From the IMG/VR virus record IMGVR_UViG_3300045988_161152: DNA of 64,000 nucleotides; one strand, written 5' to 3'. Positions 31,005 to 32,550 of this stretch are shown piece after piece. The notes beneath the pieces were generated by a model. That model was not told where the DNA came from, did not search any database, and saw nothing but the letters and a program-made list of their open reading frames with translations. The translations under genes were made by a program, and so were the position numbers. Position 1 is the first letter of the stretch. Each line of letters starts with the position of its first letter. The stretch comes from a virus (taxonomy: Duplodnaviria > Heunggongvirae > Uroviricota > Caudoviricetes).

Positions 31005-31468
31005 CAGGGTTTTCGTCATGGTTAGCGACTTTGCGGCGGTTTAGAAACTGACCATTAAAGTAAATGCAAACGATGATCTGATGATGGTAGCGGCCTAAGA
31101 AGCCAGATGCCACGGGGTATGAGTCGTCCCCCGTCAAAAAATCGACCGCAGAGTGTCCCCGTCTGTGTATTAGGGAACGGGGAGGCACAACAGGTAAGGG
31201 CGCTGGTGTGATTAACCAGATGAACGAGAAGGGGCCATCTGTTGGTCAGCGTCCTTTCCTGTTGCGTTTTCTTTTCAGCGTAACAGCGGTGCTTAACAGC
31301 ACTTTGGGTACAGTTCCACGAATTTACGGGTATATCCCGTCATGCTGAAAGCGCTAATCACGCTGGAAGCCAGGGTTGTGCATCCCCTGTTACCGAATTG
31401 CAGCCAGGGCGCGGTGCGCCGAAAAGCATACGGAGGTGGAAGCCCTCGCCGGAGACGTACCCGGCAAG

Positions 31469-31544
31469 TGATGGTGTAGCTCAGCGGTTAGAGCGGTTGA
31501 CTGTTAATCAACGGGTCGATGGTTCAAATCCATCCACCATCGCC
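31469..31544 (+). tRNA. tRNA-Asn (anticodon GUU)
   Basis: 76-nt cloverleaf, acceptor GATGGTG/CACCATC, anticodon loop CTGTTAA, T-loop TTCAAAT, encoded CCA. Confidence 0.85.
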
Positions 31545-31546
31545 AA

Positions 31547-31622
31547 TGCCGGTTTAGCTCAGTTGGTAGAGCGCCTGCCTTGTAAGCAGGATGTCAGCGG
31601 TTCGAGTCCGTTAATCGGCACC
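31547..31622 (+). tRNA. tRNA-Thr (anticodon UGU)
   Basis: GCCGGTTTAGCTCAGTTGGTAGAGC...CCTTGTAAGCAGG...GGTTCGAGTCC...CGGCACCA; 2 nt after tRNA-Asn. Confidence 0.85.
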
Positions 31623-32550
31623 AGCACAACAGGTAAGGGTATTTTGCGACGTCGGAGATCGCCGAGCTTGGCAGAGGGTTCGAATCCCTACGAAGTACCC
31701 TTACCGTTGTGATGAATGCGCAGGCTGATGCGCGAAAGACATTGCAGCTATTGCGGAAAAGAGCTGTTCGGCGGGGCAATTAAACGCCCGTGAGAGTCTG
31801 AAATAACCGCAAGCCGGAGATCAGCACCGGTCATCACAACACAACAGGTAAGGGCATTCTCCCTTATGGGGCTTGGCTTAAATGCATCGAGTGCTCTTAC
31901 CGTTGTGATGAAGTGCAGCTCTTTGAAGCAACCAGAAGATAAGCATCTGGCTTCACAACATAAACCGCAGGAACGACCAATAAACGGTAGTCCGTATGGA
32001 GAACACCCCGTTGAGGAAGAGGCCTGGCCGGAACCGTAACCGGCACTACAACGTTGAGAACACTGGCGTAACGGGGTCATATCCCAATCTACGAATAAAT
32101 GTTGCGTTGCAGCGTGACAACCAGTGTTCTCAACATTGTGGTGAATGCACAGGCTGATGTGCCGCAACTACAGTAGTGCGCGCTTTGCGGGGCTTGCTAC
32201 AACCCTGTGTCGGAGTTCAGCACCGACCATCACAGTTTGATTCTCTGGCATGAGCATAACGCTGAAATAAGTCCAGTCTGGTGCGGCCCGATCACCCGCC
32301 GTTAGCTCCACGAAACGGAGCACGTAACAGGTAAGAGCATTCTCCTGTAACGGGTTCATATCCCAATCTACAGGTCCACCAGGAATGCTCTTTCCGTTGC
32401 GGTGAATGCGGCTAAGCGCACGCGGGGAAATGGTTATATCTGTCCATTATTTCTCCTTATTTCCCCGTCCATGGTGGATAACCAGCCAAAGGACACCGGG
32501 AAGCACCCGGCACCGCAACCTTATTTCCCAACCAGTAATGAGGTTAATAA

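Follow-up and report, generated by a model that had tools for sequence, protein, structure and literature searches.

A non-coding array of long hairpins, tRNAs and prophage-type small RNA modules in the ban operon leader of a P1-like phage

Introduction

Repeated long RNase III hairpins with an internal mismatch or bulge lie between the functional RNAs of one early transcript in the T7 early region and the lambda N leader, and in the T4 tRNA cluster (stable RNAs species 1 and 2) and the TMER units of MHV68 viral transcripts combine tRNAs or tRNA-like elements with small non-coding RNAs (ncRNAs), all matured by host RNases. The locus described here belongs to a stretch of 64,000 nucleotides (nt) of viral DNA, IMG/VR record IMGVR_UViG_3300045988_161152, which was analysed whole and is called the window below. 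A first-pass annotation made from the letters alone had marked positions 31189-32405 as a non-coding array of structured units with tRNA-like cores around tRNA genes. This 1.2-kb stretch is indeed a real non-coding array, in which hairpins alternate with two tRNAs and four prophage-type small RNAs (sRNAs), and its structure and homology are held with high confidence. On balance the region is probably the untranslated leader of the ban operon, a polycistronic ncRNA array with hairpins as RNase III punctuation.

The array is the P1 version of a known kind of element, the RNase III-processed sRNA cluster of prophage early leaders such as dicBF. In the Qin prophage, a 190-nt DicF species is lost when RNase III is mutated (PMC10448788, citing Faubladier et al. 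1990). The sRNA-17 of E. coli K1 RS218 is 193 nt long, and its deletion raised yfdP about 100-fold (PMC7719688). STnc100 and PasD are reported to be related prophage sRNAs, the latter detected by Hfq RIL-seq (bioRxiv 10.64898/2026.05.13.724894).

The layout of the P1-like leader recurs in lambdoid prophage early-left leaders, including the DicF locus of E. coli K-12. As in T7 and lambda, the P1 hairpins are repeated, but they carry a three-way junction and tRNA-like arms, and they part sRNAs and tRNAs instead of mRNAs. The arrangement is like that of the T4 cluster and the MHV68 TMERs, compared by description only, while the enzymes and sequences differ.

Architecture of the ban operon leader

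Over 30800-32560 the window is 99% identical to P1, JL22 and RCS47, which marks it as a P1-like phage. In the list of open reading frames (ORFs) the array occupies a 1.75-kb gap between dmt (28532-30796) and tciA (32551-32976). The annotation was transferred from P1 (NC_005856, locus L001 among the compared loci, which are cited by L numbers throughout; window coordinate = L001 coordinate + 28299). In that reference the gap is the leader of the C1-repressed ban operon, with a 'dicF-like region', two tRNAs and the minus-strand genes plp and upl. A consensus scan of the leader returned only one strong intrinsic terminator, at 30977-31004, and no promoter-like or consensus promoter site inside the array, so that the array is most simply part of the plus-strand Pban transcript. 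A P1vir RNA-seq preprint contains nothing on the ban leader.

Motif counts and folding both place the array beyond chance. The shared 5' end AACAGGTAAG occurs four times in the 64-kb window (31189, 31628, 31843 and 32326), always on the plus strand and within the array, against 0.15 expected from shuffles, and the shared 3' end TTGYGRTGAAKKC three times against 0.05. The copies of TTGYGRTGAAKKC and a variant at 31896 form the four-copy repeat family D1 of a repeat finder, and the unit ends fall into its repeat families D1-D4. The first-pass annotation had ascribed conserved ends to the units in general; unit 4, however, has other stem sequences (ACAACGTTGAGAAC...), and unit 1 is devoid of the GTGATGAA tail. 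All five units fold into long hairpins on the plus strand (-35 to -48 kcal/mol, z = -5.1 to -8.3), with none of 200 shuffles as good. Every unit is 6-10 kcal/mol stabler on the plus than on the minus strand, pointing to G-U pairs and hence to RNA rather than DNA structure. The stem first described as 18 bp at 32048-32137 exists, its exact form being a 23-nt inverted repeat (32044-32066 / 32121-32143, 91% complementary), and the true span of the array is wider than first drawn, from about 30850 to 32517.

From 5' to 3' the leader reads Pban, MOD0 with its terminator, a spacer, HP1, a spacer, tRNA-Asn, tRNA-Thr, HP2, modA, HP3, modB, a spacer, HP4, modC, a spacer, HP5, modD and tciA, where HP stands for a long hairpin and MOD or mod for a module. 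The features are listed below; R1 is a covariance model of the HP4/HP5 hairpin family, built from 15 lambdoid sequences only, which finds HP4 and HP5 on the plus strand.

30771-30816, plus strand: Pban promoters and C1 operator Op72 (Oban), start of the leader transcript (transferred P1 annotation)
30858-31004, plus strand: MOD0 and terminated 3' end, homologue of the Qin 190-nt DicF precursor region (L208 1745-1945, z = 16.9), terminator at 30977-31004
31185-31272, plus strand: HP1, long hairpin with the stem sequence of HP2, HP3 and HP5, no GTGATGAA tail; -39.3 kcal/mol, z = -5.1; repeats D3/D4; no R1 match
31326-31342, plus strand: degenerate copy of the hairpin core (ACGGGTATATCCCGT) in the spacer before tRNA-Asn, read from the sequence
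31470-31545, plus strand: tRNA-Asn (GTT), called by ARAGORN; Rfam tRNA 74.5 bits
31548-31623, plus strand: tRNA-Thr (TGT), called by ARAGORN; Rfam tRNA 72.9 bits; HP2 starts directly past its 3' end
31624-31716, plus strand: HP2, long hairpin under a three-way junction, T-arm look-alike GGGTTCGAATCCC at 31676-31688 stacked on the stem; -41.6 kcal/mol, z = -5.8
31706-31840, plus strand: modA, homologous to E. coli K1 sRNA-17 over the 137 nt at its 5' end, closing helix GTTGTGATGA / TCATCACAAC
31831-31912, plus strand: HP3, long hairpin with an apical part unlike the other units; -37.8 kcal/mol, z = -6.0
31902-31957, plus strand: modB, short two-hairpin module; repeats D1/D2
32040-32149, plus strand: HP4, three-way-junction family, anticodon-arm look-alike at 32071-32089; R1 33.4 bits, E = 6e-7; -47.9 kcal/mol, z = -8.3
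32135-32236, plus strand: modC, closed by ATTGTGGTGA / CCATCACAGT, first and last hairpins of the modA kinds; repeats D1/D2
32317-32409, plus strand: HP5, three-way-junction family, core ACGGGTTCATATCCCAATC at 32350-32368; R1 38.6 bits, E = 2e-8; -35.4 kcal/mol, z = -5.3
32397-32517, plus strand: modD, STnc100-like, closed by GTTGCGGTG / CACCGCAAC, directly upstream of tciA
32551-32976, plus strand: tciA (TerB family, Pfam TerB E = 2e-6), first protein-coding gene past the array (ORF list)

The segment 31099-31110 (GAAGCCAGATGC) of the spacer past the terminator is perfectly complementary over 12 nt to the terminal hairpin of modB at 31943-31954 (GCATCTGGCTTC), with a chance expectation within the leader of about 0.1. 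Elsewhere in the window, 15297-15471 and 11651-11856 hold a sok antitoxin RNA (strong Rfam match, 114.9 bits) and a C4 antisense RNA with a1/b1 target sites (70.8 and 55.5 bits) in the immunity I region of P1. TciA (TerB-family) homologues 84-87% identical are encoded on the viral contigs L029-L084, which are of lambdoid size (about 40 kb) and show no repeat motifs upstream of the gene; several carry a tRNA T-arm about 200 nt upstream.

Small RNA modules between the hairpins

The hairpin 3' tail GTTGTGRTGA is complementary to a downstream CAYCACAAC (inverted repeats I14/I15) and closes with it a multi-hairpin module. This closing helix changes compensatorily, being GTTGTGATGA/TCATCACAAC in modA, GTTGTGGTGA/TCACCACAAC in phage mEp460 and GTTGCGGTG/CACCGCAAC in modD. 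Among 19 variants from P1-like and lambdoid elements, 7 of the 10 pairs of the helix (consensus GUUGUGRUG/CAYCACAAC) show change on both sides, the observed covariation is reached by 0 of 500 shuffles, and slid registers pair to 23-63% against the 87% observed.

Where the first-pass annotation could match the array to no named element, a partial match can now be given, since the modules between the hairpins are homologous to sRNA-17 and STnc100-like sRNAs; its suggestion of a family of small structured RNAs is borne out by the same homologies. Many lambdoid phages have a segment with 97-98.6% identity to modA, located just past cI in the early-left leader on the matching strand, and the published 'full length', rapid amplification of cDNA ends (RACE) and northern primers of sRNA-17 match this lambdoid segment exactly. 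With sRNA-17, which comes from an mEp460-like prophage of strain RS218, the window shares the first 137 nt (at about 98% identity), the preceding hairpin and the closing helix with one compensatory change. The two differ downstream, as sRNA-17 ends in a DicF-like intrinsic terminator, while modA of the window runs into HP3 with the terminator part replaced. Both modA and HP3 are absent from P1 itself and from the P1-like plasmid L207. The cassette junction lies in the repeated CCCTTACCGTTGTGATGAA, which, together with the near-identity of modA to the lambdoid copies, points to a recent gain by recombination at repeated hairpin ends. The counterpart of modB was found in the lambdoid locus L090 as GTTGTGGTGAATTGCAG...CCAGAAGATAAGCATCTGGCGCCACAAC, followed by a terminator.

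The match of modD to Rfam STnc100 (RF02076) reaches 39.2 bits (E = 1.5e-6) against a gathering score of 47. Of the 206 model positions it covers 31-147, in which the closing helix and the CCGGGARGCACCCGG hairpin lie, and leaves out 1-30 and 148-206; a further difference is the location of modD in a P1-like plasmid prophage. By sequence, modD is best described as a divergent relative of STnc100 and not as a member. The spacer between dicF and dicB in Qin scores 34.1 bits with the same model and aligns to modD (z = 15.9).

The Qin dicBF leader is among the closest parallels and agrees in order as well, for it presents a long hairpin, a GUUGUGG.../...CAAC module, a terminated sRNA, an STnc100-like module and the first gene on a repressor-controlled early-left transcript, and its modules have homologues in P1 30858-31000 (z = 16.9) and modD (z = 15.9). 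Unlike Qin, the P1 leader is devoid of the DicF seed region and of any Rfam DicF match, and it combines four modules and five hairpins in tandem with two tRNAs; the Qin hairpin has a degenerate apical core. The model of DicF (RF00039), a 53-nt RNA with a seed region and a terminator hairpin, gave zero matches in the window even at E<=10, and what the 'dicF-like' region annotated in P1 mainly aligns to is the Qin module that lies upstream of DicF. The mEp460 leader was also compared with 31012-31184, and the homology is not significant (z = 1.8). The P1 leader thus strings together, without terminators, several RNAs that occur singly as terminated sRNAs in lambdoid prophages.

The hairpin family and its anticodon-arm look-alike

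Members of the hairpin family were defined by a 20-bp stem P1, a stem P2, a GGG/CCC arm with a CAU loop and a variable P4, on the transcribed strand. With R1, the forward strand of true members scores about 110 bits and their reverse strand about 42. No R1 match was obtained for HP1-3, which are therefore tied to HP5 only by the shared P1-stem sequence; their apical parts differ from that of HP5, and further apical variants exist in P1-like relatives. In 46 distinct forward sequences, 96.5% of the pairs are canonical and 25 of 33 show double compensatory change. Slid registers are 38-58% canonical, and 0 of 500 column shuffles reach the observed pairing. Distinct stems can be seen by eye, with ACAAAACAGAGAAGAGCA, ACGCAACACACAAGAGCA, ACAACGTTGAGAACACTGG and AACAGGTAAGAGCATTC for stem P1 and CCGGG/CCCGG, CCTGTA/TACAGG, CGTA/TACG and CTGAATA/TATTCAG for stem P2. 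Comparison across relatives, of the kind that the first-pass annotation had put forward for P1-like genomes, reveals compensatory change in both the hairpin family and the module closing helix. MAFFT with RNAalifold misregistered the alignment of mixed P1 and lambdoid hairpins and was replaced by the covariance model.

The family is absent from Rfam 15, and Rfam at gathering threshold gave zero matches on 129 kb from 12 lambdoid loci. A search with the HP4/HP5 core CGGGNTCATAWCCCAATC retrieved at least 120 viral contigs, nearly all lambdoid. In lambdoid loci a single hairpin lies directly past a DicF-like terminator, with the first left-operon gene (yfdP and others) about 30-50 nt further on; in L175 it is preceded by a promoter/operator-like sequence and not by a terminator. 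With one genome per species, strong R1 matches are almost confined to Enterobacterales (Escherichia, Shigella, Citrobacter, Enterobacter, Kosakonia, Leclercia, Mixta, Erwinia and others), with weaker ones in Yersinia and Pantoea and one strong match on a contig that bears the label Chryseobacterium. In other phyla, pattern matches are attributable to chance, none lies inside a tRNA gene, and R1 is silent on them except for the Chryseobacterium contig and a 35-bit match in an Acidobacteriaceae metagenome-assembled genome. As far as sequence searches indicate, the family occurs almost only in Enterobacterales prophages and P1-like plasmids, with few exceptions.

The T-loop-like cores of the first-pass annotation hold for unit 2 only. 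With a T-loop defined as a 7-nt UUCRANY loop with U at position 1 and A at position 5, the HP2 arm GGG-UUCGAAU-CCC (GGGTTCGAATCCC) fits the consensus, and 12 of its 14 nt equal the T-arm of the adjacent tRNA-Asn. The loops of HP4 (GUCAUAU) and HP5 (UUCAUAU) (GGGTCATATCCC, GGGTTCATATCCC) fall outside this consensus and are not T-loops, because loop position 5 is U and not A. They fit instead an anticodon loop with U33, CAU and A37. Three G-C pairs above a CAU loop are a hallmark of bacterial initiator tRNA. Taking the initiator anticodon arm as three consecutive G-C pairs and a 7-nt loop with U33, CAU and a purine at 37, both cores qualify as look-alikes, not as genes. Across the 46 sequences the arm GGG-YUCAUAW-CCC keeps its three G-C pairs, U33, CAU and A37 invariant, variation in the loop being limited to positions 32 and 38. 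The 14-mer CGGGCTCATAACCC is common to the lambdoid form and to metY, the E. coli initiator tRNA, in its anticodon arm (local alignment z = 6.7); HP5 agrees with this 14-mer at 12 of 14 positions, and the core also aligns, more weakly, to the T-arm region of tRNA-Asn (z = 3.9). By sequence the HP4/HP5 arm thus resembles the initiator-tRNA anticodon arm, through mimicry or ancestry, and any specific role can be put forward with low confidence only.

In lambdoid loci such as L116, L163 and L114, the P4 arm and the small hairpin past the tail often carry an identical loop U(U/G)GCAG on unrelated stems; this recurrence suggests a shared binding partner or a tertiary contact.

Several other identities were tried for parts of the hairpins and rejected. 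A boxA or nut site is contradicted by the GCTCTT of the 3' arms, which is base-paired and missing from HP4 and other lineages, and a C/D box or k-turn (GUGAUGA...CUGA) would have the wrong topology, with CUGA in a hairpin loop. A pseudoknot between the CAU loop and the 3' tail (AUGAA / GGAGAA) fails, as lambdoid members with a UUCAUAA loop keep GGAGAA and an arm of this length would not extend to the base of the stem. Conservation of the tail by pairing with the terminator U-tract does not apply to L175, L141 and L114, where the tail is the same and there is no U-tract.

tRNAs and the slot shared with the modules

As first described, tRNA-Asn and tRNA-Thr are embedded in the array. ARAGORN and Rfam call only these two and a tRNA with anticodon CAT at 33251-33326 in the window, and the tRNA model (RF00005), for a cloverleaf with acceptor stem, D-arm, anticodon arm and T-arm, matched no hairpin or module within 30800-32600 even at E<=10. 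The Rfam scans proposed with the first-pass annotation return the known tRNAs, do not match the units as tRNAs and bring out modD as a relative of STnc100.

Relatives show real tRNAs next to, or in place of, parts of the array. In L205 a real tRNA-Arg lies directly 3' of the hairpin that elsewhere precedes sRNA-17, and L207 has a tRNA-Ser and a different hairpin instead of the spacer and HP5, this hairpin beginning right after the CCA. Hairpins also lie directly 3' of tRNA ends in L101, L154, L156 and L188. At the module position, L194 (1077-1203, minus strand) and L185 (4364-4488, minus strand) carry tRNA-like genes that score 43.9 and 29.5 bits with the Rfam tRNA model and are missed by ARAGORN. 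In both, the D-arms and T-arms are canonical, while the anticodon / variable-arm region contains a large insertion, which in L194 measures about 64 nt. In L194, L185 and L173 (upstream of 2239), the insertion of these lambdoid early-left tRNA-like genes holds another GG-UUCAUAA-CC hairpin.

The acceptor stem of the L194 and L185 genes, GUUGUGG/CCACAAC, is that of the module closing helix, and between the L185 T-arm (CCGGGTTCGAGTCCCGGCGCCACAAC) and the hairpin that ends the STnc100-type module (CCGGGAGGCACCCGGCACCACAAC) there is essentially no difference but in the loop. Given this position and partial sequence identity, the module family may descend from a tRNA-like scaffold, with the closing helix derived from the acceptor stem and the last hairpin from the T-arm. 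The idea of degraded tRNA genes in the first-pass annotation therefore survives as ancestry or resemblance, as the equivalent slot of relatives holds a real tRNA or a tRNA-like gene. It fails if decaying pseudogenes are meant, since purifying selection on the hairpin family is strong and compensatory changes in it are abundant.

A transfer-messenger RNA (tmRNA), with a tRNA-like domain and a tag reading frame, was considered and rejected, as ARAGORN finds none, the Rfam permuted-tmRNA model stays at 26 bits where its gathering score is 47, and an early stop interrupts the mEp460 counterpart. At 31063-31098 (context 30992-31150), the reading GCA AAC GAT GAT CTG ATG ATG GTA GCG GCC TAA gives ANDDLMMVAA*, an SsrA-tag-like sequence that is probably due to chance.

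Proposed processing and alternative explanations

In the proposed mechanism, Pban transcription past the 31004 terminator would yield one long precursor, in which tRNA-Asn, tRNA-Thr and modA-D are set apart by HP1-5, with helices of roughly 15-25 bp. RNase III would cut in the lower 3' arm just upstream of GTTGTG, creating the 5' end of the next module and freeing the preceding RNA, so that HP1-5 act as punctuation from which modules are released and tRNA trailers freed. The closing helix and the 5'-proximal hairpin of each module may then protect the released RNA, and a role as small regulatory RNAs is expected of the modules from their membership in the prophage group of sRNA-17 and STnc100.

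The predicted hairpin helices comprise about 14-27 pairs with single mismatches or bulges and reach the two turns of double-stranded RNA; it is this likeness of roughly two-turn helices with a single mismatch or bulge to RNase III substrates that led to the punctuation proposal. Two independent homologous loci have a processed 5' end placed low in the 3' arm, right upstream of GTTGTG. The full-length primer of sRNA-17, from the RACE-mapped 193-nt RNA, starts at CGTTGTGGTGAATGC, which in mEp460 belongs to the hairpin's 3' arm and lies 12 bp below the top. In Qin, counting back 190 nt, the published size of the species, from the DicF 3' end leads to about L208 1746-1750, within the 3' arm of a hairpin (1673-1758) that is itself a weak R1 match (14.6 bits) with a degenerate apical core. 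By analogy with these loci, the hairpins are assigned as RNase III punctuation sites with moderate confidence. The first-pass suggestion of processing modules of the ban transcript was thus probably right in kind, though the homologues indicate RNase III on long hairpins, not RNase P or E. While the structures with their conservation and covariation, the homologies and the lack of a coding signal are shown by the analysis, we infer RNase III cleavage in P1, an sRNA function of the modules and a tRNA ancestry.

Several points weigh against reading the region as an RNase III-punctuated leader. RNase III cleavage is carried over by analogy from two homologous loci, not from P1 ends, and the Qin site is placed by the published 190-nt size, not by a coordinate from the paper. 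HP1-3 stand outside the R1 family and are linked to HP5 by stem sequence alone. The family covariation was counted on a model-fitted alignment, which leans towards structure, and that of the closing helix used hand-chosen registers. Both modD and the Qin module lie below the STnc100 gathering threshold; the P1 modules, unlike their lambdoid counterparts, have no terminators, and their Hfq binding and targets are putative. RNase III processing also leaves the invariant apical anticodon-arm look-alike unexplained.

The origin of the 5' ends could be accounted for differently if the units were tRNA mimics matured by RNase P on the 5' side of an acceptor-like helix and by RNase E or exonucleases on the 3' side, like the C4 RNA of P1; this is unlikely, if the least so of the alternatives. 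C4 RNA is matured by RNase P and is present in the window, the GUUGUGG/CCACAAC closing helix is the acceptor stem of the tRNA-like genes at the equivalent position (43.9 and 29.5 bits), a real tRNA-Arg begins where sRNA-17 begins, and the inferred 5' end of sRNA-17 precedes the helix by one nucleotide, where RNase P would be expected to cut. Yet the P1 modules have no CCA or discriminator-like 3' end and no ARAGORN or Rfam tRNA match at E<=10, and the 190-nt DicF species, with its 5' end placed in the corresponding arm of the hairpin, is lost in the RNase III mutant; the RNase P and RNase III routes could also coexist. A second possibility takes up the look-alike arm. It is rather doubtful that the HP4/HP5 hairpin represents an undescribed phage RNA class, an RNase III-excised, tRNA-sized junction that mimics the initiator anticodon stem-loop and engages a tRNA-fMet factor (30S P site/IF3, MetRS or a VapC-type nuclease), with the neighbouring sRNA-17/STnc100 sRNAs as remodelled tRNAs, and slightly more doubtful that it is, whether attached or released, a functional initiator anticodon-arm mimic serving as decoy, sponge or sensor for the 30S P site/IF3, MetRS or an anticodon nuclease (enteric VapC). 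Enteric VapC cleaves tRNA-fMet in the anticodon arm, and such mimicry would fit the G-C pairs and U33-CAU-A37, invariant in the 46 sequences while the surrounding stems changed often, the variation at loop positions 32 and 38 only, as in real anticodon loops, the 14-mer CGGGCTCATAACCC common to the lambdoid form and metY (z = 6.7), and the restriction of the family to Enterobacterales prophages and P1-like plasmids. Against it, there is no experimental link and no co-occurring protein partner, one copy per lambdoid phage is weak as a stoichiometric decoy for an abundant tRNA, the flanking AC...AAUC is conserved yet not tRNA-like, and the similarity of the core to the tRNA-Asn T-arm region (z = 3.9) means that the likeness may be ancestry.

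It is improbable that the hairpins are cis-acting antitermination elements, comparable with the put RNA of HK022 or with nut sites, for read-through of early-operon terminators. The lambdoid member does head the early-left operon directly past an intrinsic terminator (in L175 past a promoter/operator-like sequence), a terminator stands at the start of the P1 leader too, and no N-like gene is annotated between cI and the first left-operon gene in mEp460 or the Stx2 phage. HK022 put, however, is a two-stem RNA, about 70 nt long, which is found past both PL and PR and acts on RNA polymerase, whereas the element here lies downstream of the terminator to be defeated, has no second copy on the PR side of the loci that include it and occurs once per lambdoid locus. 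The HK022 early region lacks the hairpin-family motif, and put RNA was rejected as an identity on this ground and on that of the single copy. The five P1 copies between RNAs fit punctuation better, and the boxA-like GCTCTT is base-paired and not conserved in HP4. Least probable of all is that the units are functionless decaying tRNA pseudogenes or recombination scars, or that the region encodes Plp and Upl on the minus strand. Such views could draw on the tRNA-like piece in HP2 (its T-arm), on cassettes swapped between relatives at repeated ends and on the plp and upl annotated in GenBank P1 records, but compensatory changes keep the structure across many genera and the structure is strand-specific. 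The plp ORF measures 81, 88, 96, 103, 116, 125 or 139 amino acids among close relatives, upl is missing in six, and Pfam gives no match for plp and one sub-threshold hit for upl (E 0.078, below the curated cut-off). Of 629 E. coli records that match in RefSeq, 30 were listed, and in these P1-like plasmids carry no annotation over the upl / 5'-plp region apart from a tRNA-Ser (three variants) and one hypothetical protein (partial match). The minus-strand plp and upl are probably spurious. Small plus-strand ORFs from the tail AUG were rejected too, their frame and length not being conserved. In mEp460 (L002 2707-3260, minus strand), the hypothetical proteins mEp460_037 and mEp460_036 lie opposite the hairpin, sRNA-17 and the terminator, and they are probably annotation artefacts like plp and upl.

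Significance

A literature search retrieved no description of the tandem sRNA-tRNA concatenation, of the three-way-junction family with its look-alike, or of sRNA-17/STnc100 modules sharing a slot and terminal helices with tRNA-like genes. Current understanding is not overturned; dicBF already provides a known case of such a leader processed by RNase III. About 1.7 kb of the classic P1 genome between dmt and tciA is best read as an ncRNA factory, and plp and upl probably do not exist. The DicF precursor, sRNA-17, STnc100 (with its reported relative PasD) and the P1 tRNAs are joined in a single modular layout, which is common to P1-like plasmids and lambdoid prophages and whose cassettes are exchanged at repeated hairpin ends. 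The strongly covarying hairpin family, new to Rfam 15 and with an invariant arm that copies the initiator-tRNA anticodon arm, is a concrete, testable object. That one slot is filled by real tRNAs, tRNA-like genes or sRNAs in different phages suggests a route from phage tRNA genes to regulatory sRNAs.

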